From: Escherichia coli
GTDB lineage: Bacteria; Pseudomonadota; Gammaproteobacteria; Enterobacterales; Enterobacteriaceae
Length of the DNA stretch: 64,000 nucleotides
Direction: 5' to 3' (one strand)
NCBI RefSeq assembly: GCF_013122565.1
Contig: NZ_CP053258.1
Positions 5,438 through 47,703 of the stretch are shown here, one piece after another. The notes under the pieces are model-generated. The model was not told the origin of the DNA. It made no database searches and saw only the letters and a list, made by a program, of their open reading frames with translations. The translations under genes and the position numbers were made by a program. Each line of letters begins with the position of its first letter. Positions within the stretch are counted from its first letter, which is position 1.

Positions 5438-5439
5438 GA

Positions 5440-11500: not shown

Positions 11501-14500
11501 ACCAATATCCACCCCCATCTCCATGGTCGTGGAACAGTTCAGCACATTAACTTTGCCTGACTTAAATTGTTTTTCATTAAACTGGTTCTGCTCAGGCGTT
11601 CTCTGCGCAGAGTGTTCCTCCAGACGATACCAGCTATCTTTCAGGGCCAGTCGGTCGCTGCGAGTAGACCATAATCCTTCCTCGCGGGCATGTTGAATCA
11701 GCGCATTACTTTCCAGCCACTCCAGACGTTCTTCTCGGGCGATTTCTCCACCACCAGACAAACGCCAGTGACGTACAGGAAGCTCAGGCATTTCAATCAA
11801 CACTGCTTTTTCAGGTGCAATTTCTTTGCTACCCGGCAAATACGGAGAGTATCCCAGCAACGTGACGTCTAACGCACGTCGAGTATAGGGGCAACGCCAC
11901 ACTTGCTTTGGACTGTAAAATTCAGCTTGTTGTTTAATATCCAGCTGATAACCCGACTCAAACTGACGTAAGCAGGGTCGAATTGCATCCCAGACCTCAA
12001 TCATTAAGTGGTTAACTAACGATTTCCAGTGAGCCTGCTCAGGTTGTATTGCCGGAAAGACTGCGATTAATAGCTTAATGACCCGGTTATAATGGCGATC
12101 GCGTATTTGTGGCCAAAGTTGATCACGTTTCTGCCCTTTGTTTTTTTTATCTGGCCCCTGGAGCATTTTTACCGGGAAACGTGCCCCCATCCAGCGAGGG
12201 TATTGCTCGTTTTCGTAAAAAACGGCACTGTTTTCACGGATAAAGAAATCAAGAGTAATCTTCAATAAATTACGCCATTCCGCTAATTGCTTATCGGGAT
12301 CGGGTAATAATGTCTTCCAGTCCTGCGGGCAGGTTGTAACTTTATCAATAAATGGATAGTGAATGGCTACCAGACCCAGACTTTCGAGGGTCCAGGCATT
12401 TTTAGGGCGGCGACCAAACTCGCTGTATAAACAAAAATCTGCAAACTGTTGTTTAGTAAGATCAAGCCCAGACAATTCTTTAAAACTGCCTCTCATTCTA
12501 TCGGCAAGGTCCACACTGCCAACCAGCTGTTCAGACAGCGTTTGCCATGACATGGTTTTCTTCTGCTGATTGCCAGAGTTAGCCTGAAGTATTTGCATCG
12601 CTTCAGCATGATCCGGGCTTAAGGAACTCACCATCGGCTCAATAATTTTAAGTGCCTGAATGTCCGCCGGGCTAAGCTCCTCATTCGCAGCCATCGCTTT
12701 TTTCAGCGCGTCGATGGAATTTTTTAAAGGGAGGACAGAAAACTGGCTAATAACTTTCTCTAACAGTGCACAGTGTGCCGGGCTGAGTTTTGCTGAAGGC
12801 TCTGTAATATTTGCCAGCTCCTGGTAACAAAGAGCTCGCAACGTCGCTTTATCGGCATCCTGCTGTAAGCGAGCTGAAATGCGAGCGGTACCCTGACGCG
12901 AATCCGTAAAGGTGAGCAAGCGTCGACCATTAAACGGTCCTAACTGCTCTTCTCTTGTTTGCGGTAATGGAGAAAACTCCAGCAGAGTAGGAATAATTTC
13001 ATTTAAAAAAAAGGGCGCGCCGAGCCGAAGCGGACGGAATAAAGGATTATTTTTCCGTTGAGTGTCACCACAGCACACACAAGCAAAGGAGTTATTGCGT
13101 CCCTCACCTCGAGATTCCGGTCTTAACAGGTTTATTTCATAGTGCTTTTGCGCTTCACTATCAATTTTCCCCGCCGTCGTTTCTTCCAGTGAAATGATAT
13201 ATTTTTCACCATCGCTCGCAATCAGACGATCAAATTGAGAGTTATTGTCTAATTCGTCGTTGTCTTCATCTTCAGAATAAACATCTACATCAAGAGCAAA
13301 CTCATCCACTTCGGCAGCGGCGGGTTGCGCTACCAACCAGTTCGTTCCATCACCGCGCATCTCCTCTTTGGCAGACAAATAAGCTGAACCACACCCGGAG
13401 CAACGTAAAACTTCAAATACCGGCGCACCACAGTCACAATATTGGCGCTGCTCAAACCATACCTGACCAAATGGCCAGTCACTCTGATTTAATTCATGTG
13501 CTTTATGTGAGCATTGTTTGTTTGAACATGCCCATAGACCCGCCAGTGTTCTGATAAACCCATGCATACGTAATGGCGTAAAAGCCAGTTCACCTTCTCG
13601 CGATCTTGCCATTAGATCGAGGAGTTGCAGTAGCTCACGGTGATTAATATCTGGCCAGGTTCTTCTGGCAACATTGAGCAACTCACTCAAACGTACTGCC
13701 TGCCGTCCGGGATGAGTTAACGCCTGACGCAATTGCTGGGCCACACGGTAATGACAAAGCTGTTGGTAAAGATCCTGAGGGCTCAGGGATTTAAGAGAAG
13801 TTAAAGATGTGGGGTATTCATGACGAATCAGCGACTCCGATACCCGCGGTATTTGTCGATAACCGCGAACCACTTTGACATCACGTTCTGTAACGCCCGC
13901 GAGATCAGCGACAAATTTAGCAAGCTCCTTATTACCTTCAGGAGAGTCTTCACCAATAGTGGCAGAGGTCGCGATAATCTGCACAGGTTTATCTGTGCCG
14001 GGTCCAACATTGAAAGCCTGCATAACACGACGTAAAAGCAGCGCTAACTCAGCAGCCTGAGAACCAATATAACTATGGGCTTCATCCAGGACGATATACT
14101 TTAACATCCCCTGAGACTTTTCGATGATTGGGGCATCTTTACGACGAATCAGCATATATTCCAGCATGGTGGTATTCGTCACCATGATGGAAGGTGGTGC
14201 TTCATAAATGGCTTCCCGACTCAAAGCTTGTTCAGGTACTTTCAACTGATCTTCCTGAATTTCGTATTTGGTATGCCGGGTTTCGCCATTATATAGCGCG
14301 AAGCGTATTTTCCCCTTAAATCCGCGCGTCCATTCGCGAAGCCGCTCCTGTTGGCTGTTAATTAATGCATTTAACGGATACAAGAAAATAGCTTGTGTCC
14401 CTGTTAGTGACTGGCGGGTCGATTTTTGCTGACGAATAAGATCTTCCAGAACAGGTACCATAAAGCATTCTGTTTTCCCGGATCCCGTACCGCTGCTCAC

Positions 14501-14845
14501 TAACAAGGATTTTTTGTCTTCCAGAATCGTTCGCCACGCAGTGAGTTGATGACGAAATGGCACTGGCGCTTTGCTCAATGCATCAACCAGCGGGCTGGAG
14601 ATCAGCTTGTCCCGCAAATCCTCCATTGTTTCATCCGCAGGCATCCAGCCGAATGTACTTTCGAATACCGGGTCTGCAAGCAGTGACCCCTCCTGACCGG
14701 GAGGCTGAAAATATTGTGATTCCAGATAATGAGTCAACGACTTGCTCCGCAATGCCAACTGACTTACCACCGACCTCACCGCACGCTGATGAAGCTGATT
14801 TAGAAGTGGCGCATAATGCAGTTGCTGAACGTCCATCAATGACAT
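8522..14845 (-). CDS. Very large helicase (2107 aa) with C-terminal cysteine-rich DUF1998-like zinc ribbon; Druantia DruE-like
   Basis: Motifs GTGSGKTECFM (Walker A), VLDEAHSY (DEAH), C-terminal CxxC clusters (CSCDKFCHHC); size and architecture match DruE. Confidence 0.7.
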   Translation of the reverse strand: MSLMDVQQLHYAPLLNQLHQRAVRSVVSQLALRSKSLTHYLESQYFQPPGQEGSLLADPVFESTFGWMPADETMEDLRDKLISSPLVDALSKAPVPFRHQLTAWRTILEDKKSLLVSSGTGSGKTECFMVPVLEDLIRQQKSTRQSLTGTQAIFLYPLNALINSQQERLREWTRGFKGKIRFALYNGETRHTKYEIQEDQLKVPEQALSREAIYEAPPSIMVTNTTMLEYMLIRRKDAPIIEKSQGMLKYIVLDEAHSYIGSQAAELALLLRRVMQAFNVGPGTDKPVQIIATSATIGEDSPEGNKELAKFVADLAGVTERDVKVVRGYRQIPRVSESLIRHEYPTSLTSLKSLSPQDLYQQLCHYRVAQQLRQALTHPGRQAVRLSELLNVARRTWPDINHRELLQLLDLMARSREGELAFTPLRMHGFIRTLAGLWACSNKQCSHKAHELNQSDWPFGQVWFEQRQYCDCGAPVFEVLRCSGCGSAYLSAKEEMRGDGTNWLVAQPAAAEVDEFALDVDVYSEDEDNDELDNNSQFDRLIASDGEKYIISLEETTAGKIDSEAQKHYEINLLRPESRGEGRNNSFACVCCGDTQRKNNPLFRPLRLGAPFFLNEIIPTLLEFSPLPQTREEQLGPFNGRRLLTFTDSRQGTARISARLQQDADKATLRALCYQELANITEPSAKLSPAHCALLEKVISQFSVLPLKNSIDALKKAMAANEELSPADIQALKIIEPMVSSLSPDHAEAMQILQANSGNQQKKTMSWQTLSEQLVGSVDLADRMRGSFKELSGLDLTKQQFADFCLYSEFGRRPKNAWTLESLGLVAIHYPFIDKVTTCPQDWKTLLPDPDKQLAEWRNLLKITLDFFIRENSAVFYENEQYPRWMGARFPVKMLQGPDKKNKGQKRDQLWPQIRDRHYNRVIKLLIAVFPAIQPEQAHWKSLVNHLMIEVWDAIRPCLRQFESGYQLDIKQQAEFYSPKQVWRCPYTRRALDVTLLGYSPYLPGSKEIAPEKAVLIEMPELPVRHWRLSGGGEIAREERLEWLESNALIQHAREEGLWSTRSDRLALKDSWYRLEEHSAQRTPEQNQFNEKQFKSGKVNVLNCSTTMEMGVDIGGMSLVAMNNVPPAPANYLQRAGRAGRRGESASAAITLCKNTAHGMEVFKDPLWAFNTTASAPRVRFGSSSIVQRHVNALVLGLFLRAEVPDATKLSCKWFFEGDESQCLRFLHWLNHQADQLADKLKRLTQGTVLMSLTATQLLTRTQAMMQQVDIRWRSQLAILLENIEALKADNSAWEETPAGKAIAYQLRDYRGAYLFSKLISEAFLPGHGFPVGVVNFNYLTADELEKRRAIKATQADPNEGGESFSRRIEKLPSRDLPTALREYAPGADVVLGGKVYRSSGIMLGKVLASGQELSGDHHIPWFWHCRKCGAGATSTTRPVECSHCKADIQQLDVKRYLQPVGFATDIRYQAHNDVSMPAQLPWKDPRVLVPSSVWVSLPDAGLGRYRFSHSGELFHFSEGEFGHGYAICLSCGRAESQTQPQRTPENLKNPERENTHYLLRGGSNDRQGSNKLCHGHVHKDLWLGYSSRTDMVELQLNDDNGLLIRDEVAARSLAVALREGLAHKLGIENTELGVTTQQARDINGYTGYSIFIYDNNAGGAGYAVQLIDHWADVFNYARKLLDCSCDKFCHHCLLSYDSQHYVNRLDRHHALTLLTNVRLQRLNLAPEYQYFGDGSRVETNPLSLRIAQCLNSEIYDSCSLVLAGPQEQWDFAQWPLFKELLQFASSGGNVELLVATPLENLTDSSRHQLSALAAMPGGRLQVKSIATAQLMQGKGRWLAQVTREGQSQQWAADDSATVAPGELWGQSASSPVVTLKGTSGKTFSGQTLSAEDLLPALPTGAVRINLCEQLDGPLEGFGSRFWSLVTQQHAGWKQAFTRHKEITHVEYSDRYLNSPFTARLLGEILTELVEQGMAERASLTVCVKKLDYNSRQHDALYNAWLNEEDRQQVVTTLLEEGYLGPAWPGAISWLTGDNQSTEHGRELTVTFSDGSQHYVLLDMGLSYWRCIEDTLFDFALRVPQQVERLANTRSRAVAPGNDLRSYVIAG

Positions 14846-17800
14846 ACTCCTGCTTGTTCAAAATAATATTGATAGATTACCCCTAATTGCTGTGGGGCTT
14901 GCTGATAGTGAAATTCAAAAAGCGCAGACAGTTGATGTATCAGGTTATTATCTTTTTGGGTTAACAGCGCTGCGACTAACATCAAATTAAAACGTTTTTC
15001 AAGCCGTGAGTGATATTTATCTTCAATCCAAAGCTTATTAAAAACAGATTTTAACTCTGGAGTAATAGCACTGGACCAAAGTTCTTTAGGGAAGATACTG
15101 ATACGCCCAAAGCTGTCGGGGTTCCTTAATAGCATCTGTTTAGCTTCATTAAACTGCTCACGACTAACAGTTGGCAATACATCACAACCGGTTGGTAGGC
15201 TCTCACTATATGTAAGTAACATATTCGCAATGGGAGCCAGCCGACGATCGATATGTGCACGATGGTTCATAAAAGCAATAAAGGGTCGCAATATATGTAA
15301 TGCTAATGTTTTATCGTTAATCTGTTTTTCCAGATAAGTCCAACATTTTTGGAAAACATCTTTCCAGATTGAAACGGGAATCCATCCCCATGAAAAGGGT
15401 AATTCTTCCTGTATATCATAAATCGTATCGCTATCACCAGAAAGACATGATGATATTAACAATTGAACAACCACGCGGTAATTACTCGAAATACATCTGA
15501 ACAAGTCCAGATCCAGCAAGGATAAGCCATTATTCATTTTGTATTTCTTAATATACTCTGTTAATAAACAGCAATAATTTTGCAATGGGTTGTTATCTAT
15601 TTCAAAAATTAGCTCATTAAAATTTTTTTTGCGCTGTTCTGGGTCTGCTTCGCATAGAGCATTTAGTAATAAATCATTTGTCTGTAATACAGGTAGCATC
15701 CATTTAATTACTGGTGCAATGCGAGCTGTACCATCCAGTTTTCCCACAATTAACCATGGACTATCCTGAACATTCAGAGCTGAAAGATCATAAGCAAACT
15801 CATCTTTTTTTAACAATGATATGTGTAAGCCAGGATTCTTAAGAGAAATAGCATCAACAACCAGTTCGTCTATTCTATTTGCAGGAAAAACAACAGAATT
15901 TTTTATATCAACCAGTAACCCTTGATCGTGTTCAATAAAACTACCATCGTAGCGTTTAATATTGAGTGTTGCTTTATCCTTTCCAAATCTGTCAGAGTAA
16001 AAATCAACACATAATGTACTATTGCTGTTCCATGCACATGCCAGCATAGCATTTAGCAAATTATAGTTCTCATAAAGTGAAATTTGTTGTAATTTGTCAT
16101 TGCGTCCTGATAAAAGAGGAAGGTCGGCATGTAAATAACGGAATTTTTCAGCTACTGGATTTTCATCGAATAACTCGATATTAAGATATCCTCTTCCAGC
16201 ACATGATATGGTTAATAACTCAGCATCTATTCCATGCAAATGTGCTATAGATGCCACACCATCAAAATGAACAGAACCATCATTAGTTACAAATCGGCCA
16301 CCGCTAACCGGCTTAGGTAATAATAGTTTAAGATTAGAACCATCTTTCCAGGAGACCCGTAAATCAACGGTATTTTCCAGCATCTGCGATGAATTATAAT
16401 AAATAGCACACTCGTTTTGTGAATAATCGGACTTAAGTGTTACTTTTTCATTGTTTGAATATTTATCAATTCTAGTATCCGTTATACCAGAAAGTATAAT
16501 AATGCCTTGCTGAGCACTCTCAGGTATAATATTAATATCGAAGTCTGCTGGTAAAACTACAACTTTACCGCTAAATAAAACCTCATCATTAACTATTCGC
16601 CGGACTTCTATCTGTCCTTTTGGCATTTCTGATGCGACAGAATACCAGGCATTGTTACCTGAACGAATGGAACGCCAAAAAAGTTCTTTCTCCGGTACAA
16701 TGCCATATTGTAGATCCTTTTTCCAACCGATCTTCGGCCAGGCTCGATGGACAGGATAATCCGATTTAACCAGTTCAACTTCTGTCGATTTAATATAATA
16801 TTCAATTGCAGAATCATAAAGTTGCTGGGTGCGAATTGTACAAACAGCACCATCATGTAAAACAACGCTAAATACTCCACTTATTTTAGTTAAGCTGCGT
16901 TCACTGTTTTTCAGCAACCTTGGGATATCAAACTCACCTTCTCCACTAATATCTAAATGGCTATTTTTCGGTAGCGAAATAAACAGAGCATTTAGCCTGG
17001 AACTCACAGACCCCATACCAACAAGTTTTAGCTGCGATTCACTCTCATTCATCGCTTCAAAAACCCAGGGAAGTTCTTCAGTAAGTTCATAACCGCCTTT
17101 TGGAATTGTGTGACCTAACAGAATTGGACCTTCATGAAGCGACAATGAGATTTCGGCCATTGCATCTGCACCAGAGAGTTTTTGCATCGCAATAGGTAAT
17201 AACTCGACCCGCCAATCTTGCTGCTCATAACGGCTTAGCATTGCCAACCTTGCCCCGCCATTTTTCCATTTTCCTGAAATGATGAGTCGGGTCTGCTCCG
17301 GCTGAATATGGCATTCAAACAAAGAGGTTAACTGTTCTGTACGCATTGTGGCCGGGAATCGGAACCGGGCATCGCAATACCAACTGTCATCAACATCGAC
17401 CCAGATTCTTTCAACCTGAAGACTACTTGCACTGCGTATTTCAGAAGATTGAGAAAGTAATCGCCTTACAATCTCTGCAGCATTCGCTTCGGGGAGAACG
17501 AGTGGAAGTTGAAGATGCCAGTCTGGAGAGAGCTTACGTAATGCAGAAACGGGATCACTGCTTTGAGGAGGATGCTCACTAAGTAATCGGCAGAGAGTCT
17601 CGCAGAATTCACCGGCTATTTCATAGACCAGTTCGTTTTGCATTGTGACAGGAATCGTATCGCCTAATTCTTGTGCAATTTTAGCGGCAGGATATTGAGA
17701 TGATTGCCCACGAAGCGCCTGATATATCCTTCTGAAATAGGTAATCAAATAACCGCTCTCATTTTCAATCATGCGGATAGGTAAACCACCTTCACAAGCC

Positions 17801-18195
17801 AGTGTATGCAGATAACCCGAAGCTTGCCCCAGGTTTCTTATCTTTCTTTTCCAGTAGCGAATGCCATCATTAACCAGCTTCTGTCGATGAACATACGGAA
17901 CTTTCCAGTTAATAGAATCTAAAATTGTGTCCCATTTAGGGTGTCCGACCGTATGAGTTCGGCGGATAAACTCTGCGGCATATATGCTAAATAGAACATC
18001 GCTATAGGAAATGAATATCGTTCTTGGATAACTACGGGGGGCATATGTACGCAGTAGTTCTGCCAAACTTTCGTACTCTGTATCAGTACAACGGTAAGCA
18101 TATAACGCCCGTCCATCAGCTCCGGATAATGAACGGCGACTAAAAAACATGTTAAGCCATTGCAAAAGTGGGTTAACTGGAGTTTTCACAAGCAA
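14836..18195 (-). CDS. Large protein of unknown function (1119 aa); Druantia type III DruH-like by position
   Basis: Long ORF immediately upstream of and overlapping the DruE-like gene by 10 nt; no recognisable catalytic motif. Confidence 0.5.
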   Translation of the reverse strand: MLVKTPVNPLLQWLNMFFSRRSLSGADGRALYAYRCTDTEYESLAELLRTYAPRSYPRTIFISYSDVLFSIYAAEFIRRTHTVGHPKWDTILDSINWKVPYVHRQKLVNDGIRYWKRKIRNLGQASGYLHTLACEGGLPIRMIENESGYLITYFRRIYQALRGQSSQYPAAKIAQELGDTIPVTMQNELVYEIAGEFCETLCRLLSEHPPQSSDPVSALRKLSPDWHLQLPLVLPEANAAEIVRRLLSQSSEIRSASSLQVERIWVDVDDSWYCDARFRFPATMRTEQLTSLFECHIQPEQTRLIISGKWKNGGARLAMLSRYEQQDWRVELLPIAMQKLSGADAMAEISLSLHEGPILLGHTIPKGGYELTEELPWVFEAMNESESQLKLVGMGSVSSRLNALFISLPKNSHLDISGEGEFDIPRLLKNSERSLTKISGVFSVVLHDGAVCTIRTQQLYDSAIEYYIKSTEVELVKSDYPVHRAWPKIGWKKDLQYGIVPEKELFWRSIRSGNNAWYSVASEMPKGQIEVRRIVNDEVLFSGKVVVLPADFDINIIPESAQQGIIILSGITDTRIDKYSNNEKVTLKSDYSQNECAIYYNSSQMLENTVDLRVSWKDGSNLKLLLPKPVSGGRFVTNDGSVHFDGVASIAHLHGIDAELLTISCAGRGYLNIELFDENPVAEKFRYLHADLPLLSGRNDKLQQISLYENYNLLNAMLACAWNSNSTLCVDFYSDRFGKDKATLNIKRYDGSFIEHDQGLLVDIKNSVVFPANRIDELVVDAISLKNPGLHISLLKKDEFAYDLSALNVQDSPWLIVGKLDGTARIAPVIKWMLPVLQTNDLLLNALCEADPEQRKKNFNELIFEIDNNPLQNYCCLLTEYIKKYKMNNGLSLLDLDLFRCISSNYRVVVQLLISSCLSGDSDTIYDIQEELPFSWGWIPVSIWKDVFQKCWTYLEKQINDKTLALHILRPFIAFMNHRAHIDRRLAPIANMLLTYSESLPTGCDVLPTVSREQFNEAKQMLLRNPDSFGRISIFPKELWSSAITPELKSVFNKLWIEDKYHSRLEKRFNLMLVAALLTQKDNNLIHQLSALFEFHYQQAPQQLGVIYQYYFEQAGVCH

Positions 18196-18403
18196 CCTGC
18201 CTTCCTTTGATACAATTCGTAACAGGTTACTATCATCATAAAAAAGCTCAACCCGATGAACTCGCTAAAAATGAGACAAATCATTTATATCTCGAAAAAA
18301 CTTGTTACAATCATGAGCGCTACACCGAACTTAACCATATAAATTATGTGTGTTTTGTTTATTTTTTAAACGATTACAACTATCCATTATTTACACAGGT
18401 ATC

Positions 18404-20059
18404 AAAATGTTAGCGCAGCTTTTTGAGCAGTTGTTTCAATCGATAGACTCTACACTGATCACCAATATTTTCATCTGGGCTGTTATATTCGTATTTTTAT
18501 CAGCGTGGTGGTGTGACAAAAAAAATATACATAGTAAGTTTAGAGAATATGCTCCAACCTTAATGGGGGCATTAGGTATTCTGGGTACTTTCATTGGTAT
18601 TATTATTGGTTTACTCAATTTTAATACCGAAAGTATTGATACCAGCATCCCCGTATTATTAGGTGGCCTAAAAACAGCATTCATTACAAGCATTGTAGGT
18701 ATGTTTTTTGCCATTTTATTTAATGGAATGGATGCTTTCTTTTTTGCCAATAAACGAAGTGCGTTAGCAGAAAATAACCCTGAATCTGTTACACCTGAAC
18801 ATATCTATCATGAATTAAAAGAGCAGAACCAGACTCTGACTAAATTAGTCTCGGGTGTTAACGGTGATAGTGAAGGTTCTCTTATTGCTCAAATAAAATT
18901 ACTACGTACTGAGATTAGCGATTCTTCGCAGGCACAATTAGCTAATCACACTCATTTCAGTAATAAGCTTTGGGAACAACTTGAACAATTTGCAGATCTA
19001 ATGGCAAAAGGTGCTACAGAACAAATTATTGATGCTTTGCGACAAGTTATTATTGATTTTAATGAAAATTTAACTGAACAGTTTGGTGAAAACTTTAAAG
19101 CACTTGATGCCTCTGTAAAAAAACTTGTTGAGTGGCAGGGAAATTATAAAACGCAAGTTGAGCAGATGTCAGAACAGTATCAACAAAGTGTCGAGTCCCT
19201 GGTTGAAACAAAAACTGCGGTTGCAGGGATTTGGGAAGAATGTAAAGAAATTCCTCTGGCTATGTCTGAACTGCGTGAAGTGCTTCAGGTGAACCAACAT
19301 CAAATCAGCGAACTCTCCCGCCATTTAGAAACCTTTGTCGCCATCCGCGATAAAGCAACAACCGTATTACCTGAAATACAGAACAAAATGGCTGAAGTGG
19401 GTGAACTGCTGAAATCCGGAGCTGCAAATGTTAGTGCATCTCTTGAGCAAACCAGCCAGCAAATACTTCTTAATGCAGATTCAATGCGCGTGGCCCTGGA
19501 TGAAGGTACCGAAGGATTCAGACAATCGGTTACCCAAACACAACAAGCATTTGCCTCGATGGCACATGATGTCAGCAATTCCTCCGAAACCCTAACCAGC
19601 ACGTTAGGTGAAACAATTACTGAAATGAAACAAAGTGGTGAAGAATTCCTGAAATCACTAGAGTCGCACTCGAAAGAATTGCATAGAAATATGGAACAAA
19701 ATACTACGAATGTGATTGATATGTTCAGTAAGACTGGTGAAAAGATTAACCATCAACTATCCAGTAATGCCGATAATATGTTTGATTCAATCCAGACATC
19801 ATTTGATAAGGCAAGTGCAGGGTTGACTTCTCAAGTCAGAGAATCAATTGAAAAATTTGCTCTATCCATCAACGAGCAGTTACATGCTTTTGAGCAAGCA
19901 ACTGAACGTGAAATGAACCGTGAAATGCAATCATTAGGTAATGCTCTGCTTTCAATCAGCAAAGGTTTTGTCGGTAACTATGAAAAACTTATTAAAGATT
20001 ACCAAATAGTTATGGGGCAGTTACAAGCATTAATTTCTGCTAATAAACATCGCGGGTAA
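18404..20059 (+). CDS. MotA/ExbB-like membrane protein with long coiled-coil tail; Zorya ZorA-like
   Basis: N-terminal hydrophobic helices followed by long helical Q/E/L-rich tail; ORF track starts at GTG 18350, first ATG at 18404. Confidence 0.65.
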   Translation, partial: KMLAQLFEQLFQSIDSTLITNIFIWAVIFVFLSAWWCDKKNIHSKFREYAPTLMGALGILGTFIGIIIGLLNFNTESIDTSIPVLLGGLKTAFITSIVGMFFAILFNGMDAFFFANKRSALAENNPESVTPEHIYHELKEQNQTLTKLVSGVNGDSEGSLIAQIKLLRTEISDSSQAQLANHTHFSNKLWEQLEQFADLMAKGATEQIIDALRQVIIDFNENLTEQFGENFKALDASVKKLVEWQGNYKTQVEQMSEQYQQSVESLVETKTAVAGIWEECKEIPLAMSELREVLQVNQHQISELSRHLETFVAIRDKATTVLPEIQNKMAEVGELLKSGAANVSASLEQTSQQILLNADSMRVALDEGTEGFRQSVTQTQQAFASMAHDVSNSSETLTSTLGETITEMKQSGEEFLKSLESHSKELHRNMEQNTTNVIDMFSKTGEKINHQLSSNADNMFDSIQTSFDKASAGLTSQVRESIEKFALSINEQLHAFEQATEREMNREMQSLGNALLSISKGFVGNYEKLIKDYQIVMGQLQALISANKHRG

Positions 20060-20065
20060 TCGATC

Positions 20066-20773
20066 ATGGATAAGATTATAGGGAAACAATTACCTAAAAA
20101 AGATCAAGATAATGAACATTGGGTATCCATGTCAGACCTAATGGCAGGGCTGATGATGGTTTTTATGTTCATATCTATTGCTTATATGCACTACGTACGT
20201 ATTGAAAAAGAAAAAATTAAAGAAGTTGCCGTAGCCTACGAGAATGCTCAGTTACAGCTTTATAATGCTCTGGATATTGAGTTTGCAAAGGATTTACAAG
20301 ACTGGGATGCAGAGATCGATAAACAGACTCTGGAGGTTCGATTTAAATCACCGGATGTTTTATTTGGCTTAGGAAGCACAGAGCTAAAACCAAAGTTTAA
20401 ACTCATTCTTGACGACTTTTTTCCTCGCTACCTAAAAGTTCTAGATAATTATCAGGAACATATTACTGAAGTCCGCATTGAAGGTCACACAAGTACTGAC
20501 TGGACAGGAACAACGAATCCTGATATTGCTTATTTTAATAATATGGCACTATCACAAGGTCGTACACGTGCAGTATTACAATACGTTTATGACATAAAAA
20601 ATATCGCGACACACCAACAATGGGTTAAAAGTAAATTTGCCGCAGTAGGTTATTCATCTGCACATCCCATTCTTGATAAAACCGGCAAGGAGGATCCTAA
20701 TCGCTCTCGTCGTGTCACCTTCAAAGTTGTAACAAATGCCGAGTTGCAGATTAGAAAGATTATTCAGGAGTAA
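20066..20773 (+). CDS. MotB/OmpA-like protein with peptidoglycan-binding domain; Zorya ZorB-like
   Basis: N-terminal TM helix; OmpA-like C-terminus (NxxLSQGRTRAV...NRSRRVTF); 6 nt after zorA-like stop. Confidence 0.65.
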   Translation: MDKIIGKQLPKKDQDNEHWVSMSDLMAGLMMVFMFISIAYMHYVRIEKEKIKEVAVAYENAQLQLYNALDIEFAKDLQDWDAEIDKQTLEVRFKSPDVLFGLGSTELKPKFKLILDDFFPRYLKVLDNYQEHITEVRIEGHTSTDWTGTTNPDIAYFNNMALSQGRTRAVLQYVYDIKNIATHQQWVKSKFAAVGYSSAHPILDKTGKEDPNRSRRVTFKVVTNAELQIRKIIQE

Positions 20774-20776
20774 GAG

Positions 20777-21880
20777 ATGAAATTATCTATCGACATTTCA
20801 GAACTTATTCAATTAGGGAAGAAAATGTTACCAGAAGGAGTCGATTTTTTTCTGGATGAATCCCCTATTGACTTTGATCCTATAGATATTGAGTTATCAA
20901 CGGGTAAAGAAGTTAGTATCGAAGATCTTGACCCTGGTAGCGGGCTTATCTCTTATCATGGCCGCCAGGTTCTTTTATATATTCGGGACCATTCAGGGCG
21001 TTATGATGCGGCTATCGTAGATGGCGAAAAAGGAAAACGTTTTCATATTGCCTGGTGCAGAACTCTTGATGAAATGCGCCATAAAAATCGATTTGAAAGG
21101 TATCATGCAACTAACCGCATAGATGGTTTATTCGAAATTGATGATGGTTCAGGTCGGAGCCAGGATGTTGATTTACGGGTATGTATGAATTGCCTCGAAC
21201 GGCTTAATTATAAAGGAAGTATTGATAAACAAAGAAAAAGAGAGATTTTTAAATCATTCTCATTAAATGAGTTTTTTTCAGATTATAGTACCTGTTTTCG
21301 TCATATGCCTAAGGGTATCTATGACAAAACAAATAGTGGGTATGTCGAAAACTGGAAGGAAATATCTAAAGAAATACGAGAAAAGGCAAATTATGTTTGT
21401 AATGATTGTGGCGTGAATTTATCAACCGCCAAAAACTTGTGCCATGTCCATCATAAAAATGGCATCAAATATGATAATCACCATGAAAACCTTCTTGTTC
21501 TGTGCAAGGATTGCCATCGAAAACAGCCCCTCCACGAAGGTATATTCGTTACCCAAGCAGAGATGGCTATCATTCAACGTTTACGTTCCCAACAAGGGTT
21601 ATTAAAAGCAGAATCCTGGAATGAAATATATGACCTGACTGATCCATCAGTGCATGGTGATATTAATATGATGCAACATAAAGGCTTTCAACCTCCTGTT
21701 CCTGGGTTAGATCTTCAAAACTCAGAACATGAAATTATTGCAACCGTAGAAGCTGCATGGCCAGGCCTTAAAATTGCAGTTAACCTTACTCCCGCCGAAG
21801 TCGAAGGATGGAGAATATATACCGTGGGTGAGCTGGTTAAAGAAATACAAACCGGAGCCTTTACGCCAGCAAAATTGTAA
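20777..21880 (+). CDS. HNH endonuclease-domain protein; Zorya type II ZorE-like
   Basis: HNH motif CNDCG...CHVHHKNG...NLLVLCKDCH; third gene of MotA-like/MotB-like cassette. Confidence 0.6.
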   Translation: MKLSIDISELIQLGKKMLPEGVDFFLDESPIDFDPIDIELSTGKEVSIEDLDPGSGLISYHGRQVLLYIRDHSGRYDAAIVDGEKGKRFHIAWCRTLDEMRHKNRFERYHATNRIDGLFEIDDGSGRSQDVDLRVCMNCLERLNYKGSIDKQRKREIFKSFSLNEFFSDYSTCFRHMPKGIYDKTNSGYVENWKEISKEIREKANYVCNDCGVNLSTAKNLCHVHHKNGIKYDNHHENLLVLCKDCHRKQPLHEGIFVTQAEMAIIQRLRSQQGLLKAESWNEIYDLTDPSVHGDINMMQHKGFQPPVPGLDLQNSEHEIIATVEAAWPGLKIAVNLTPAEVEGWRIYTVGELVKEIQTGAFTPAKL

Positions 21881-21891
21881 ATTCTAAAACT

Positions 21892-21915
21892 CCGTGAAAG
21901 TTAAGACTTTCACGG
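21892..21915 (+). terminator. Hairpin (10 bp perfect inverted repeat) after zorE-like gene, probable terminator
   Basis: CCGTGAAAGT-TAAG-ACTTTCACGG followed by A/T-rich tract. Confidence 0.4.
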
Positions 21916-22090
21916 AAGATAAATAAAATTATTCTGATTTGTGACTCAAATTACAAAAGTAGTTAATGGCATAACTTGTCTTGTTTTTATGGTATAACAG
22001 GTATAAAGGTATATGCTATGGTTCGCCTCATACTTAAAACTTCCCTCATACGGGTGAAGGTTAAAGCTTGGTAGACAGGAGACAGTCACA

Positions 22091-23197
22091 ATGAATAAAG
22101 CAATAACGGCGCTTGCTATCATGATGGCTTCATTTGCCGCAAACGCGTCTGTATTACCGGAAACTCCTGTGCCATTTAAAAGTGGTACCGGAGCAATTGA
22201 TAACGATACTGTCTACATTGGTTTAGGTAGCGCAGGTACGGCATGGTACAAGCTGGATACACAGGCCAAAGATAAAAAATGGACAGCGTTAGCTGCATTC
22301 CCTGGTGGACCAAGAGATCAAGCAACCTCGGCATTTATTGATGGCAATCTTTATGTGTTTGGCGGCATTGGCAAAAACAGCGAGGGCTTGACTCAGGTAT
22401 TTAATGACGTACACAAATACAACCCCAAAACCAATAGCTGGGTTAAATTGATGTCGCACGCACCGATGGGCATGGCGGGTCATGTGACTTTTGTACACAA
22501 CGGCAAGGCTTATGTTACTGGCGGTGTTAACCAGAATATCTTCAATGGCTATTTTGAAGATCTCAACGAGGCTGGAAAAGATTCAACCGCTATAGATAAA
22601 ATCAACGCCCACTATTTTGACAAAAAAGCAGAAGATTATTTCTTCAATAAGTTTCTGTTGTCTTTTGATCCCTCAACACAGCAATGGAGTTACGCTGGCG
22701 AATCTCCCTGGTACGGAACGGCTGGTGCGGCGGTTGTGAATAAAGGTGATAAAACCTGGCTTATTAATGGCGAAGCCAAACCAGGATTGCGAACGGATGC
22801 CGTATTTGAACTTGATTTCACCGGTAATAATTTAAAATGGAATAAGCTTGATCCCGTCTCATCACCAGATGGCGTCGCTGGCGGTTTTGCGGGGATAAGC
22901 AATGATTCTCTTATATTTTCCGGAGGGGCCGGATTCAAAGGTTCACGAGAAAATTACCAGCACGGAAAGAACTATGCGCATGAAGGCCTGAAAAAATCAT
23001 ATAGCACTGATATTCATCTTTGGCATAACGGGAAATGGGATAAATCGGGTGAATTATCGCAAGGTCGGGCCTACGGAGTATCATTGCCCTGGAATAATAG
23101 TTTATTAATTATTGGCGGTGAAACTGCAGGCGGCAAAGCAGTGACTGATTCAATTTTGATCTCTGTGAAGGATAATAAAGTCACAGTACAAAACTAA
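22091..23197 (+). CDS. nanM: N-acetylneuraminate epimerase (sialic acid mutarotase), Kelch-repeat periplasmic protein
   Basis: Signal peptide plus Kelch repeats; near-identical to remembered E. coli NanM (YjhT); RBS AGGAGA upstream. Confidence 0.9.
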   Translation: MNKAITALAIMMASFAANASVLPETPVPFKSGTGAIDNDTVYIGLGSAGTAWYKLDTQAKDKKWTALAAFPGGPRDQATSAFIDGNLYVFGGIGKNSEGLTQVFNDVHKYNPKTNSWVKLMSHAPMGMAGHVTFVHNGKAYVTGGVNQNIFNGYFEDLNEAGKDSTAIDKINAHYFDKKAEDYFFNKFLLSFDPSTQQWSYAGESPWYGTAGAAVVNKGDKTWLINGEAKPGLRTDAVFELDFTGNNLKWNKLDPVSSPDGVAGGFAGISNDSLIFSGGAGFKGSRENYQHGKNYAHEGLKKSYSTDIHLWHNGKWDKSGELSQGRAYGVSLPWNNSLLIIGGETAGGKAVTDSILISVKDNKVTVQN

Positions 23198-23261
23198 CGC
23201 TTCAGGGCCCCAGTAAAGGGGCCCTGCTATCAATTTGTCATTTGAATTACGCGAAAATTAT

Positions 23262-24242
23262 ATGAACGCAATAATATCGCCCGATTATTACTATGTTCTT
23301 ACCGTTGCTGGTCAGTCTAATGCCATGGCGTATGGCGAAGGACTGCCATTACCGGACAGGGAAGATGCGCCTCATCCCAGAATTAAACAATTAGCGAGAT
23401 TTGCGCATACGCATCCCGGAGGCCCGTCATGTCACTTTAACGACATTATTCCACTGACTCACTGCCCACACGATGTTCAGGATATGCAGGGTTATCACCA
23501 TCCACTGGCAACGAATCATCAAACACAGTACGGCACCGTTGGGCAGGCACTGCATATTGCACGGAAATTACTGCCCTTCATTCCTGATAATGCAGGGGTT
23601 CTCATCGTTCCATGTTGTCGTGGCGGCTCGGCTTTTACCGCAGGCAGCGAAGGGACATATTCAGAACGGCACGGAGCCAGCCATGATGCTTGTCGTTGGG
23701 GAACGGATACCCCGCTCTACCAGGATTTAGTCAGCAGAACGCGAGCCGCACTGGCAAAAAATCCGCAGAACAAATTCCTCGGCGTATGCTGGATGCAAGG
23801 CGAATTTGACTTAATGACCAGTGACTACGCGTCACACTCTCAACACTTTAATCATATGGTTGAAGCCTTTCGTAGGGATCTAAAACAATACCATTCTCAG
23901 CTTAATAATATTACTTACGCGCCGTGGTTTTGCGGCGATACCACCTGGTACTGGAAAGAAAATTTCCCTCATGCGTATGAAGCTATTTATGGCAATTATC
24001 AAAATAATGTTTTAGCCAATATTATTTTCGTGGACTTCCAGCAACAAGGTGCAAAAGGGCTAACGAACGCGCCTGATGAAGACCCGGACGATTTAAGCAC
24101 GGGATATTACGGTTCAGCGTACCGGTCACCGGAGAACTGGACGACGGCACTGCGAAGCAGTCATTTCAGCTCAGCAGCCCGTCGGGGGATTATTTCTGAC
24201 AGATTTGTAGAAGCAATTTTGCAGTTTTGGCGCGATAGGTGA
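23262..24242 (+). CDS. nanS: N-acetyl-9-O-acetylneuraminate esterase
   Basis: Matches remembered E. coli NanS (YjhS) beginning MNAIISPDYYY; ORF track extends to an upstream TTG at 23235. Confidence 0.8.
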   Translation: MNAIISPDYYYVLTVAGQSNAMAYGEGLPLPDREDAPHPRIKQLARFAHTHPGGPSCHFNDIIPLTHCPHDVQDMQGYHHPLATNHQTQYGTVGQALHIARKLLPFIPDNAGVLIVPCCRGGSAFTAGSEGTYSERHGASHDACRWGTDTPLYQDLVSRTRAALAKNPQNKFLGVCWMQGEFDLMTSDYASHSQHFNHMVEAFRRDLKQYHSQLNNITYAPWFCGDTTWYWKENFPHAYEAIYGNYQNNVLANIIFVDFQQQGAKGLTNAPDEDPDDLSTGYYGSAYRSPENWTTALRSSHFSSAARRGIISDRFVEAILQFWRDR

Positions 24243-25277: not shown

Positions 25278-26225
25278 TCAAGCATTCAGGATGGCTAGCG
25301 CTAAGCTCCTAAACCTGGAGTAAGCCTCATCCCATGTGATCTTTCGCTCTCCATACACCATTGGCGAAACAAACTGCTGATAGCGCATCTCGTAGAGAGG
25401 ATTGTTCGCCAACTCATCCAGTCCCATTTTTAGCTCATCAACTGGAGATGCGCAAAACTGCGGGTACTGGTTGCCGTAACGCTGAATGTCCTGCTCAATA
25501 GTTTGTTGAACAAAATCAACGAGCTGACTCATATCAACATGACTCGTCTCAACAATACAGTTTGTATCGTAGATATGACGTACCAGCGATGCATCATCAA
25601 ATCGCTCAACATCTCGCACAACTGCCGCAGTACGACGTAACATCGCCACCAGCTTTTCTGCCTGTGTGCTAATGATAGTTGCACATGGAAACGCTGAAAC
25701 AATAGCCGCTTTTCCCGTGATCCCTGTTACCAGTGAATGAATATCCCGTAATTCAGAAGGCTCCAGTAACTTCGCTTCCATCAATTCCAGCCGGATAAAA
25801 GGACGCAAACAAGGTGCCTGCACCACTCGCTGTGGATAACGAACAGGTATGTCATTATAACGATATTCATCCCGCGTCACTTTTGGGTAATCATCATCAA
25901 AATTGAACACACCCGATGAAGCTATTGCACTGGAAACTGCCTGAACAATTTCTTTACGGGTATTTTTTCGCTGAGTGCGGGAAAGTGCCTGAAATGCATC
26001 CTTAGGCACCAGTTTGATATCCACATCTTCCGACATGCGATTAAGTGCGACACCTGATTTTGCCAGAGCGGTTCCTCCGGCAAACACCAATTGATGAGTA
26101 TCGAACACCAGAGGTTTAAGCAATTGCAAAAGCTCAACGATATAGTGATCTTTTTCCACAATTGCGACAGACTCAATACCAAGCGCGTCAGCCACTTCAG
26201 AAAAAAGAGTGGTTAAATCATCCAT
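25278..26225 (-). CDS. Nucleotidyltransferase-fold toxin, AbiEii-like (DUF1814-like)
   Basis: N-terminal region with GG..A....D.D motifs typical of minimal nucleotidyltransferases; overlaps upstream small gene by 8 nt. Confidence 0.6.
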   Translation of the reverse strand: MDDLTTLFSEVADALGIESVAIVEKDHYIVELLQLLKPLVFDTHQLVFAGGTALAKSGVALNRMSEDVDIKLVPKDAFQALSRTQRKNTRKEIVQAVSSAIASSGVFNFDDDYPKVTRDEYRYNDIPVRYPQRVVQAPCLRPFIRLELMEAKLLEPSELRDIHSLVTGITGKAAIVSAFPCATIISTQAEKLVAMLRRTAAVVRDVERFDDASLVRHIYDTNCIVETSHVDMSQLVDFVQQTIEQDIQRYGNQYPQFCASPVDELKMGLDELANNPLYEMRYQQFVSPMVYGERKITWDEAYSRFRSLALAILNA

Positions 26226-26613
26226 TTAATCTGCTGTTCCCTACAGATAATACGCGTTTAAAACGCCGGGGGGTTTTTATCTCGGGTGAAGCTGGGATCT
26301 GCGTAGAAGTACCGCTATTGTATGCCTGCGTTGCGCCAGCAAAACGATAGCGTACTTTCAGGCGTTCCAGCGTTTCGACAATCACCGCTGAAGAGCCTCC
26401 GGGAGCCGCTGGCATTACCTTGCCTGTAATACCGTTCCGCCGTGCTTTGGTATACACGCCATAACCAACCTTCAACAGTTGCCCTTCCCTGACAAGATCG
26501 CGCAATACCCGACCAACCTGATCGTAGCCTGCAATATCTTTAAAGTCGTCACGAGTGAATACGTAACGTTTAGAACGTTTCAGTCGTGACTGAATGCGTG
26601 CTTTTATCGTCAT
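26218..26613 (-). CDS. AbiEi-like antitoxin/transcriptional regulator (131 aa from ATG with strong RBS)
   Basis: ORF track start is at 26682, but ATG at 26613 is preceded by AGGAGG; basic N-terminus; stop overlaps toxin start. Confidence 0.5.
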   Translation of the reverse strand: MTIKARIQSRLKRSKRYVFTRDDFKDIAGYDQVGRVLRDLVREGQLLKVGYGVYTKARRNGITGKVMPAAPGGSSAVIVETLERLKVRYRFAGATQAYNSGTSTQIPASPEIKTPRRFKRVLSVGNSRLNG

Positions 26614-26645
26614 ATTCGCCTCCTGAGTCATTGCATAAAGAGTAG

Positions 26646-26689
26646 CAAAAATACGACATTTTAGATAGCAAACATACGACATTCATTTT
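26646..26689. promoter_or_regulatory. Two direct repeats of ATACGACATT in the promoter of the AbiEi-like gene
   Basis: Copies at 26651-26660 and 26674-26683, 23 bp apart; same core as inverted repeats at 35.2-35.3 kb. Confidence 0.4.
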
Positions 26690-27540
26690 GCTGATAACGC
26701 TGACGGAAAGTGCTTCGCCACGATATCATTCATCTTATCCACCAGATCCAGTCGCTTGAATGTGATATGCCCACTGCCCTTCTGAAAGTAGCGAATAGTG
26801 AATAACTCATCTTCGAAAATCTGCTGATGCGGATTATCGCGCACAAAATCCATAAACCGGATGGAGACATCATGCCGGTTATCGGGGATAGGTTTGCCAT
26901 CCAGCAAATAGAGCATACGCTCCAGATCGGCAAGCTGATCTCGCCGCCAGCCCCAGTTCAGGCTGTAGCCCCATCTGTCATGCTTCACCAGATTGTTAAC
27001 GATAATCTTCTTACCGAAATAACAGGGATTATTGGTTTTGTAGTCCCAGCTCAATCCCTTAAATACATTGATAATCCCACGTTCGAAAACATCCTGCTTA
27101 TTGTGGTGAAGTTGTTCAAAGGTACTCAGGATGTTGGCTTCGCTAATCGCCGGGAGATCACCCTCCTCCAGATTCTTTGCCCACTGACTGCGAGCTTCGG
27201 CATCCATCAGAGTCAGCATCCCAGACTTCAGCATGAGATCGCGCCAGATGCTGCGATCGATATTTCGGGTGATCACCGGCATGGCTTTATCCACCGGCTG
27301 CACCAGCCAGCAGTCGAAGGAATGGCCCTGACGCATCGCCCAATGCTCCGCCACATCACCACCGATGCTGGAGGTTAGCCGTGAGATATCATCAAGCTTA
27401 TGGATCAGGATTTCTATCAGACTCAACGCAGCATCACGACCCGTCACGATACGCTCAACATTGGTCGAGCAAATTAGCTCGTTATGATCGGTTAAGACTT
27501 CAGCTTCTGTTTGCATAATCTTTTGTCCGTGTAAAAGCAA
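26683..27540 (-). CDS. Conserved island protein (285 aa), possibly DUF4942-like
   Basis: ORF track; position downstream of a CbtA-like toxin gene as in CP4-type islands; family name recalled, not verified. Confidence 0.4.
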   Translation of the reverse strand: MLLHGQKIMQTEAEVLTDHNELICSTNVERIVTGRDAALSLIEILIHKLDDISRLTSSIGGDVAEHWAMRQGHSFDCWLVQPVDKAMPVITRNIDRSIWRDLMLKSGMLTLMDAEARSQWAKNLEEGDLPAISEANILSTFEQLHHNKQDVFERGIINVFKGLSWDYKTNNPCYFGKKIIVNNLVKHDRWGYSLNWGWRRDQLADLERMLYLLDGKPIPDNRHDVSIRFMDFVRDNPHQQIFEDELFTIRYFQKGSGHITFKRLDLVDKMNDIVAKHFPSALSAK

Positions 27541-28002: not shown

Positions 28003-28338
28003 TCAGCGTTGAGTGGGATAAATAGCGATATAGACGTAACCACAGGAACCCAGCGTATCGGCTTCGCAGGTTAGTCCTTTGGCGTATAGCGTGACGGTAC
28101 GTTGTTGGCAGGGGGAGAGTTCACCGTCAGCCAGTTTCAGCTCCAGTTGTTTCATCAGCACCGGAAAAGCCTGGTCGATATGCAGCAGATCCGGGGAGCT
28201 GAATTTCCCGGTGATTGCGGCCCGATCAGCCAGGTAATGCAGGTTATGTCTTTCCTGTACCAGTCGAGCAGTGAAGCGTGGTGTTACGGTACAGGGAAGC
28301 CCCCATTCTTGTTGCATGACCTTGTCCTTTTGCAGCAT
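28003..28338 (-). CDS. CbeA/YeeU-family antitoxin
   Basis: Similarity to remembered CbeA (WGLPCTVTPRFTARLVQE...HYLADRA...TLYAKGLTCEADTLGSCGYVY). Confidence 0.8.
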   Translation of the reverse strand: MLQKDKVMQQEWGLPCTVTPRFTARLVQERHNLHYLADRAAITGKFSSPDLLHIDQAFPVLMKQLELKLADGELSPCQQRTVTLYAKGLTCEADTLGSCGYVYIAIYPTQR

Positions 28339-28811
28339 TACAGCCAGCCCCGTTCGGCAAAAGAGAGGACATCCCCCGCCCCAATAATGAAATGATCCAG
28401 CACCCTCACTTTCACCAAATCCAGTGTCTTAACAATATTCGTTGTAATAAGTCTGTCGGCCCGACTGGGTTCCGTCACGCCGGAGGGATGGTTATGCGCA
28501 AGGATCACTGCTGCGGCATTGTGCCGTAGCGCAGATTTCACAATCTCACGGGGATGTACTTCTGTGCTGTTAATCGTGCCGAGAAATAGCGTTTCGTGTT
28601 CCAGCAGTCGGTTCTGGTTATCGAGGTAGAGCACAACAAACATTTCCCGCTCCTGTCGTGCCAGATGCAGTTGCAGCCAGGTTTTTGTGGAGTCAGAGGA
28701 AAGAAAAGATTCGCCAGGATTTCGTTGATATTTCTCCAGCAGACGCATCGCACGGCGGATAACGCGTTGTTCACTCACCGAAAATACCGGTGTTAGCATC
28801 AGTTCAGACAT
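28338..28811 (-). CDS. RadC-like JAB/MPN domain protein (YeeS/YfjY family)
   Basis: JAMM-like motif HNHPSG...S..D; CP4-type context. Confidence 0.8.
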   Translation of the reverse strand: MSELMLTPVFSVSEQRVIRRAMRLLEKYQRNPGESFLSSDSTKTWLQLHLARQEREMFVVLYLDNQNRLLEHETLFLGTINSTEVHPREIVKSALRHNAAAVILAHNHPSGVTEPSRADRLITTNIVKTLDLVKVRVLDHFIIGAGDVLSFAERGWL

Positions 28812-35339: not shown

Positions 35340-35706
35340 GTGTTAGCCGGGAAAGGATATCTGTTACTTACTAAAATGATTTAGTGCTGAAAATATTTAT
35401 AAGCTAATAAATAGACAGGTATTACGGAGTAACGCCCAGGCTATGTTAACGAGCCCGCTGTTTTATTGGCTCAAAAAACATATCCCATAGATGTTCAGCC
35501 ATACCCTCGTTAGTGAGCAAGGTATCCCTTGAGTAGCCAGGGCTGAAGACGCCCATTGATGGGCGAAAACCAAGGATCTGGCCGTTAGAACAGTTATGTC
35601 GTTAAACACATCACCACCATATGCCATCCGGCTCACTTCGTCGGCCAAATTAGTGTGATATTCTTTCCAGAAATGCTGTTGTATCCACGACATAAGGCGA
35701 TGATTG

Positions 35707-39120: not shown

Positions 39121-39183
39121 TACACGCATGACAAGCCCCGGCAGCGGGGCTTTTGTATTTAAAACAGGATATAAACGCTAACA

Positions 39184-47618: not shown

Positions 47619-47703
47619 TGGTGCCGAAGGCCGGACTCGAACCGGCACGTATTTCTACGGTTGATTTTGAATCAACTGCGTCTACCGATTTCGCCACTTC
47701 GGC
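47619..47703 (-). tRNA. leuX: tRNA-Leu (CAA)
   Basis: Reverse complement reads GCCGAAGTGGCGAAATCGGTAGACGCAGTTGATTCAAAATCAACCGTAGAAATACGTGCCGGTTCGAGTCCGGCCTTCGGCACCA (85 nt, CAA anticodon, CCA end). Confidence 0.95.

Follow-up and report, generated by a model that had tools for sequence, protein, structure and literature searches.

The question raised by this locus is whether three adjacent genes, encoding a MotA-like protein, a MotB-like protein and an HNH nuclease, constitute a Zorya type II defence system or a stator-type pair with an unrelated nuclease gene beside it. The genes lie in a window of 64,000 nucleotides of Escherichia coli DNA (contig NZ_CP053258.1), the whole stretch analysed here, the relevant features of which are collected in Table 1. 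Zorya type II was reportedly first described by Doron et al. in 2018, in E. coli ATCC 8739. Judged from the sequence, positions 18407-21880 of the plus strand almost certainly represent a complete and intact E. coli Zorya type II operon (zorA2-zorB2-zorE), which is essentially the ATCC 8739 system.

The three genes follow one another in that order and in one direction, with 6 and 3 nt between them, and all the reading frames are full length, without frameshifts or stops. The composition proposed in the earlier note was borne out by dedicated family models, since all three proteins scored above the NCBIfam equivalog cut-offs (700 bits for ZorA2, 400 for ZorB2 and 600 for ZorE) and were matched over their full length by PADLOC models (E 1e-104 to 1e-302), while the ZorA1 and ZorA3 models in the PADLOC search reached just 17-49 bits. 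No ZorC/ZorD or ZorF/ZorG genes were found at the cassette, the flanking genes being druH, which lies upstream and is encoded on the other strand, and nanM on the downstream side. No evidence contrary to the Zorya II identification was found in the analysis, and the "-like" of the earlier title appears superfluous, the cassette being identifiable as Zorya type II itself. The genes have, in addition, already been named zorA2, zorB2 and zorE by the NCBI pipeline. Regarding the extent of the cassette, the three-gene unit stands, but not the start previously given at 18404, where the codon is AAA, the ATG being at 18407. A longer zorA reading frame from a GTG at 18350 (569 aa) was rejected, because the ATG is where both the family profile and the gene as annotated in RefSeq start.

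Table 1. Positions in the window of the Zorya II genes and of the features that flank them
Feature	Position	Strand	Description
ArmB-like	521-5437	-	1638-aa IIG/DrmMI/PglX-like methyltransferase
ArmA-like	5440-8298	-	952-aa SNF2/BrxHII/DrmD-like helicase
druE (Druantia type III)	8522-14845	-	2107-aa YprA-like helicase-nuclease; PADLOC DruE3 2182.5 bits, residues 9-2105
druH (Druantia type III)	14836-18195	-	PADLOC DruH3 2549.6 bits, full length
druH (-)/zorA (+) intergenic region	18196-18406		Divergent, AT-rich; presumed promoters of both operons
zorA2	18407-20059	+	550 aa; MotA/ExbB-like membrane subunit, helical cytoplasmic tail
zorB2	20066-20773	+	235 aa; MotB-like subunit, N-terminal TM with Asp24, C-terminal OmpA-type domain
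zorE	20777-21880	+	367 aa; predicted HNH nickase effector: N-terminal domain, central HNH, C-terminal extension (~266-367)
Hairpin	21891-21916	+	Perfect 11-bp stem, 4-nt loop; 11 nt past the zorE stop

The first gene product was matched by the equivalog NF041792 with 1140 bits over residues 1-550 of 550 and by PADLOC ZorA2 with an E value of 2e-302, and it resembles the type II ZorA of PDB entry 8VVI (E 1e-37). Its membrane part contains three hydrophobic, putative transmembrane segments between residues 13 and 114, with a Pfam MotA_ExbB domain (PF01618) at residues 51-110 (E 1.6e-6), followed by a tail of ~430 residues in which Glu, Ser, Leu and Gln abound and prolines number just four, with apolipoprotein-like helical-repeat matches in Pfam. 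Thus the MotA/ExbB-like helices and long tail read previously from the letters were both recovered, and the MotA/ExbB homology, whose absence from an HMM search had been named as grounds for rejection, is present. At 547 of 550 positions the protein is identical to the ZorA2 variant that is commonest in Enterobacteriaceae; the substitutions at the remaining three (I151V, Q220E and I251V) are conservative and all located in the tail. The exact ZorA sequence of the window is rare, occurring on 2 public contigs.

The second protein, described earlier as an OmpA-domain MotB-like protein, indeed combines a Pfam OmpA domain at residues 99-213 (E 3.8e-8) with a single N-terminal transmembrane segment bearing the ion-path Asp24, and it scored 443.8 bits against NF041787, E 2e-104 against PADLOC ZorB2 and E 1.5e-52 against the ZorB of 8VVI. 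Asp24, within the motif SMSDLM, is aligned to the critical Asp21 of the latter, and the D24N change in the ATCC 8739 system abolished defence (PMC11890865). The exact ZorB sequence was found on at least 1000 public contigs.

As for the third gene, which is preceded by AGGAG, general searches were of little help: Pfam gave no significant HNH match on ZorE (best HNH_3, E 0.081), and the PDB sequence search returned nothing but chance matches to a capsid protein (E about 0.5). The gene product is therefore identified by the dedicated ZorE models (NF041791, 696.1 bits over residues 1-358; PADLOC ZorE2, E 8e-177), by the motif C208xxC...H225-H226...N234/N238...C243xxC-H247, of the zinc-ribbon HNH type, and by exact identity to the sequence with the UniRef name ZORE_ECOLC, which belongs to the experimentally tested ATCC 8739 system. 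These data uphold its reading as an HNH endonuclease. Moreover, all twelve residues probed by mutagenesis (PMC13192584) are kept, namely H90, E99, Y109, Y189, H226, K231, N234, H235, N238, L239, H247 and H253.

Homology of the MotA_ExbB and OmpA domains is generic, and there were also weak matches to MotB, MotS and TssL models, so that zorA and zorB might be taken for a spare stator or energiser pair of the MotAB, ExbBD or TolQR type, serving motility or envelope transport, with the HNH gene as an unrelated neighbour. The stator models, however, gave 36-40 bits against cut-offs of 260-300 (MotS, 39.7 against 264; MotB, 36.4 against 300), far below them, while ZorB2 reached 444 against 400; neither MotA nor ExbB has a counterpart of the ~430-residue ZorA tail, successive genes of the cassette are just 3-6 nt from each other, and the surroundings consist of defence genes rather than flagellar or Ton genes. 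This reading, ruled out by the curated family cut-offs, is extremely improbable. Even less credence, practically none, can be given to the third gene encoding an autonomous homing HNH endonuclease, part of a mobile intron or intein inserted next to a MotAB-like pair, a doubt which the earlier note had itself raised. A PADLOC "HEase" model does give a weak match to the HNH core at residues 205-258 (E 4e-6, the best value for a homing endonuclease), but the ZorE equivalog match runs end to end at 696 bits, the PADLOC ZorE2 value of 8e-177 stands far beyond that of HEase, the sequence is that of ZORE_ECOLC, no host gene of an intron or intein is disrupted, and the zorA-zorB-zorE linkage is conserved in more than 500 genomes. 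The full-length match and the conserved linkage rule this reading out.

It is also very unlikely that the cassette is Zorya II by descent and now an inactive relic in the source strain, whether through silencing or through damage done by the rare ZorA substitutions. The scarcity of the exact ZorA variant speaks for it, as does decay elsewhere on the island in relatives, where IS fragments and pseudogenes are numerous (L001); against it stand the three uninterrupted reading frames, the conservative nature (I/V, Q/E, I/V) and tail position of the ZorA changes, and the intact catalytic and ion-path residues. An intact Zorya II operon is thus retained as the preferred reading.

The sequences flanking the operon were also analysed. 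The region between druH and zorA, which are transcribed divergently, head to head, is the presumed site of both operons' promoters; sigma-70-like matches were found in it at 18207-18236 and 18284-18311 on the plus strand and are no more than suggestive, because their density does not exceed that of shuffled sequence. Beyond zorE, the hairpin noticed earlier was confirmed as a structure, the inverted repeat being 100% complementary, with a dG of -16 kcal/mol and a z of -3.8 relative to shuffles, but not in the terminator role then assigned to it: it is followed by AGAUAAAUAAAAUUAUUC, with no U-run, and an intrinsic-terminator scan of positions 18100-22200 flagged nothing after zorE, the matches found being at shuffle level. 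Since the U-tract is missing and the scan did not flag the hairpin, this role is unproven; a terminator is plausible, and a transcript-end or stabilising hairpin is possible. A search of Rfam over the whole 64-kb window placed no RNA family within the cassette or close to it. Between zorE and nanM there is a 21-nt NanR-type operator. When this interval was considered as a remnant of the nanC promoter, just the operator and the 30 nt immediately preceding nanM matched the canonical fimB-nanC-nanM locus, and it is therefore not a simple nanC deletion.

On the other side of the operon, the pair druH and druE, which characterises Druantia type III, is present on the minus strand with an overlap of 10 nt, and DruH also scored 983 bits against the NCBIfam YjiT_fam/STY4851 model (cut-off 150). 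ARMADA type II is recognised by ArmA (BrxHII-like helicase), ArmB (PglX-like methyltransferase), ArmC (YprA-like helicase) and ArmD (RelE-GajB-like helicase) in a fixed order; the ArmA- and ArmB-like genes follow that order in the window, ArmC and ArmD would fall beyond its left edge, and in the relative TW14425 that position is occupied by a 2113-aa DEAD/DEAH helicase. The island, which has an integrase, is located at tRNA-Leu(CAA), and the Zorya II and Druantia III systems on it probably form part of the published Zorya II-Druantia III-ARMADA II array, whose site varies between strains and is either tRNA-Phe or tRNA-Leu (PMC12458937). The island also carries AbiE and a type I restriction-modification system with an embedded PDC-M01 pair. 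There is a slight chance that the rare ZorA combination V151/E220/V251 (2 public contigs), or the pairing with AbiE or the restriction-modification system with its embedded pair, could alter phage range or synergy relative to ATCC 8739 and ECOR19, or that the hairpin and the NanR-type operator could couple read-through of the defence operon to sialic-acid gene expression.

The system is widespread in the species. Among 5426 complete E. coli genomes, 594 matched the cassette DNA, 424 of them with at least 99% identity and annotated in RefSeq as zorA2/zorB2/zorE, and about one in ten carries the operon; 510 of the 5426 have an intact DruH-ZorA junction.

Regarding function, the mechanism proposed in the literature (Mariano et al. 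2025, PMC11890865) would apply to this copy by homology. The cloned Zorya II of ATCC 8739 blocked phages such as T7 and T3, the near-identical systems of ATCC 8739 and ECOR19 have been shown to protect against phage (PMC11890865, PMC13192584, PMC12458937), and from these the window copy is expected to protect its host likewise. The ZorA5:ZorB2 stoichiometry is known from cryo-EM of homologues (8VVI, PMC11890865), and the same stoichiometry and ion-driven rotation may be assumed here. Five ZorA and two ZorB subunits would form an inner-membrane, ion-driven rotary motor similar to MotAB, in which the OmpA-type domain of ZorB would bind peptidoglycan, this binding probably sensing the perturbation of the envelope during phage DNA injection. 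Ion flow past Asp24 of ZorB would drive ZorA, whose long pentameric cytoplasmic tail may relay the signal, so that ZorE, probably a Mg/Mn-dependent HNH nickase, is recruited to the entry site, where the enzyme, at high local concentration, would damage phage and host DNA. Synergistic action with the adjoining Druantia III (DruH/DruE), which has been shown to work together with Zorya II through RecBCD-dependent DNA intermediates (PMC13192584), may be expected as well. Nevertheless, the stimulus sensed by ZorB and the way in which the tail recruits ZorE remain models in the source papers (PMC11890865, PMC13192584 and PMC12458937, cited here for mechanism and array), and the papers differ as to whether Zorya defends directly or works by harming the infected cell.

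The cassette is already known, the system, its structure, the activity of its effector, the Druantia III synergy and the three-system island all having been published. Its value as a discovery is thus low; it serves as a positive control, a defence system recognised from raw sequence, and the window probably shows, in clear form, the Zorya II-Druantia III-ARMADA II array as it occurs on an island at tRNA-Leu.

Compared with Zorya II of ATCC 8739, gene order, sizes (550/235/367 aa), domains, ZorE itself, Asp24 of ZorB, the mutagenised ZorE residues and the Druantia III neighbour are all alike, as ARMADA II beside it would probably be, the three conservative differences among 550 ZorA positions being counted against the commonest E. 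coli variant and not against ATCC 8739 DNA. The type II ZorA5B2 of Sulfuricurvum kujiense (8VVI) shares a homologous membrane core and ZorB, Asp24 corresponding to its Asp21, but is distant in sequence, and its ZorA has 378 aa against 550, so the tail of the window ZorA is ~170 residues longer. Zorya types I (ZorABCD) and III (ZorABFG) have the ZorAB motor principle in common with this cassette, which differs in lacking ZorC/ZorD and ZorF/ZorG and in having a single HNH protein as effector. Finally, the 5:2 motors MotAB, ExbBD and TolQR show the same MotA_ExbB fold and a single-TM partner with a conserved Asp, the OmpA-like peptidoglycan anchor being shared with MotB and not with ExbD or TolR, whereas the long ZorA tail, the nuclease partner and the defence-island setting distinguish the Zorya II system of the window from all three.

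The identity of the three genes was judged with NCBIfam equivalog models, whose curated cut-offs were passed by ZorA, ZorB and ZorE alike with end-to-end matches (scores in the table). In agreement, PADLOC returned ZorA2 (E 2e-302), ZorB2 (E 2e-104) and ZorE2 (E 8e-177). Models for ZorA of types I and III, and for MotB/MotS, scored far under threshold. The closest solved structures were the ZorA (E 1e-37) and ZorB (E 1.5e-52) of the type II complex of Sulfuricurvum kujiense (8VVI). According to the ORF listing, the genes run in one direction on the + strand, with gaps of 6 nt and then 3 nt and with AGGAG immediately 5' of zorE. An earlier note had proposed a three-gene cassette of Zorya type II composition, and both its observation and its interpretation proved correct; its zorA start, 18404, was 3 nt in error, the codon there being AAA, which precedes the ATG at 18407. 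A GTG at 18350 in the ORF listing was also set aside, as the family profiles begin at ATG 18407, and so does the gene in the RefSeq annotation of a genome with 99.3% identity.

Annotated features of the window, with protein sizes and model matches
Feature	Coordinates	Strand	Size and remarks
PglX/DrmMI-like type IIG methyltransferase	521-5437	-	1638 aa
BrxHII/DrmD-like SNF2 helicase	5440-8298	-	952 aa
DruE	8522-14845	-	2107 aa; full-length PADLOC match
DruH	14836-18195	-	1119 aa; full-length PADLOC match
zorA	18407-20059	+	550 aa; ZorA2 NF041792, 1140 bits (cut-off 700 bits)
zorB	20066-20773	+	235 aa; ZorB2 NF041787, 443.8 bits (cut-off 400 bits)
zorE	20777-21880	+	367 aa; ZorE NF041791, 696.1 bits (cut-off 600 bits)
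nanM	22091-23197	+	
nanS	23235-24242	+	after nanM
hsdR	35704-39120	+	type I restriction-modification operon
hsdM	39184-40818	+	type I restriction-modification operon
hsdS	40815-41990	+	type I restriction-modification operon
Integrase	46151-47419	-	422 aa; PRK09692-like domain
tRNA-Leu(CAA)	47619-47703		adjoins integrase

ZorA agreed with its previous description as a MotA/ExbB-like membrane protein with a long tail: a simple hydropathy scan gave three hydrophobic segments within residues 13-114, Pfam detected MotA_ExbB (E 1.6e-6), and the tail (residues 121-550), abundant in Glu, Ser, Leu and Gln with only 4 prolines, drew apolipoprotein-type helical-repeat matches in Pfam. Its exact sequence is rare, being found on only 2 public contigs (WP_171459896.1/QJU25715.1), and departs from the commonest variant by three conservative tail differences (I151V, Q220E, I251V); over the cassette query (18200-22100), the complete RefSeq E. 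coli genomes of the collection reached no more than 99.3% identity. The second gene encodes, as anticipated, an OmpA-domain MotB-like protein (Pfam OmpA, E 3.8e-8) with one hydrophobic segment (residues 20-44), whose Asp24 falls opposite the ion-path Asp21 when aligned to the 8VVI ZorB and whose exact sequence occurs on at least 1000 contigs. The curated cut-offs exclude zorA and zorB as a spare MotAB/ExbBD-type stator, and so do the tail of ZorA and the genomic context. In the third protein the hydropathy scan gave no hydrophobic segment, and generic Pfam HNH models detected it barely (E 0.081); the HNH assignment was upheld by the ZorE cut-off and by a motif that is plain in the sequence (C208xxC...H225-H226...N234...N238...C243xxC-H247). 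Its exact sequence is publicly held under the UniRef name ZORE_ECOLC, where ECOLC is the UniProt code for E. coli ATCC 8739, the source of the experimentally tested Zorya II. A stray homing HNH endonuclease is likewise excluded, given the full-length ZorE match, the identity to ZORE_ECOLC and a cassette linkage kept in more than 500 genomes.

Detailed knowledge of the Zorya II system already exists. Mariano et al. 2025 (PMC11890865) solved ZorA5B2 complexes of both type I and type II and studied the ATCC 8739 Zorya II: each component was required against T7, and defence was abolished separately by ZorB D24N, by deletion of the peptidoglycan-binding domain from ZorB, which binds peptidoglycan, and by deletion of the ZorA tail. 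ZorE was found to act as a Mg/Mn-dependent nickase, to be monomeric and to move to the membrane fraction by recruitment upon infection (PMC11890865). In the model of these authors (PMC11890865), ZorB senses envelope perturbation and opens the ion channel, rotation of ZorA and its tail follows, and ZorE becomes locally concentrated and so nicks DNA. The ZorE residues required for defence according to Wu et al. 2026 (H90, E99, Y189, H226, K231, N234/H235, N238/L239 and H247/H253; PMC13192584), together with Y109, are all found here at identical numbering. A silent relic is a very unlikely reading of the cassette, whose ORFs are intact and whose residues of known importance are all conserved.

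Of the hairpin terminator claimed after the third gene, the hairpin stood (21891-21916; perfect 11-bp stem, 4-nt loop, -16 kcal/mol, z = -3.8), and the label is unproven, since no U-run follows and the terminator scan made no call there. About 80 nt upstream of nanM lie three GGTATA repeats (TGGTATAACAGGTATAAAGGTATA; 21990-22013, +), which make up a NanR-type operator, and an identical copy of the 21-mer there lies about 440 nt upstream of nanC in a Zorya-less E. coli. Because homology to the canonical nanC-nanM locus otherwise begins only at 22061, nanC is absent here and the operator copy is nanM's own. The zorE-nanM junction is common to only 96 genomes (coverage at least 80%).

Further right, an AbiEii (315 aa) and AbiEi (154 aa) toxin-antitoxin/abortive-infection pair (25278-26682, -; PADLOC E 5e-128 and 5e-53) adjoins a 285-aa ORF (26683-27540, -) that matched no PADLOC or NCBIfam family. 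RadC-like and GTPase genes (28338-28811 and 33393-34406) are typical island backbone. Directly after hsdS, two overlapping genes in the 35704-44594 locus (+) match the PADLOC 'phage defence candidate' PDC-M01A (563 aa, PtuA-like ATPase, E 5e-239) and PDC-M01B (308 aa, E 1e-107), and are a candidate defence system embedded in the restriction-modification locus; the GC content of this part is just 31-34%. A 334-aa ORF (44843-45847, -), with no NCBIfam match, occupies the island's lowest-GC stretch (about 31% GC, strong negative GC skew) between this pair and the integrase. The integrase and tRNA-Leu(CAA) mark where the defence island ends on the right, and the low-GC tracts in between agree with an island. 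Beyond it lie presumably the core genes lptF/lptG, pepA, holC and valS, judging from ORF sizes and the E. coli map. Outside the island, Rfam placed above gathering score Ysr276 antisense RNA (53709-53903, -; 182 bits) and naRNA4/CssrE (54737-54812, -; 71.6 bits).

To the left, druE and druH, with a 10-nt overlap, form a complete Druantia type III system (8522-18195, -) head-to-head with zorA, the divergent druH and zorA being separated by an AT-rich spacer of 211 bp. The 3.9-kb cassette stretch had a match in 594 of the 5426 complete E. coli genomes, with query coverage of at least 80% in 529 and identity of at least 99% in 424, and was annotated zorA2/zorB2/zorE among the matches listed. Since 510 of the 5426 genomes have an intact DruH-ZorA junction, nearly all copies of this Zorya II adjoin Druantia III. 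The helicase and methyltransferase genes (521-8298, -) downstream of druE, past its 3' end, fit ArmA and ArmB, respectively, of ARMADA type II, a system described recently; ArmC and ArmD would be expected past the left window edge, and at that position a 2113-aa DEAD/DEAH helicase is present in the relative TW14425. Druantia III together with Zorya II forms a published synergy pair. The ZorE of the window has in common with the Druantia-associated ZorE proteins a C-terminal extension (about residues 266-367), as reported for the latter (PMC13192584), and the arrangement fits the conserved Zorya II-Druantia III-ARMADA II array of E. coli, which integrative elements carry at tRNA-Phe or tRNA-Leu (PMC12458937).
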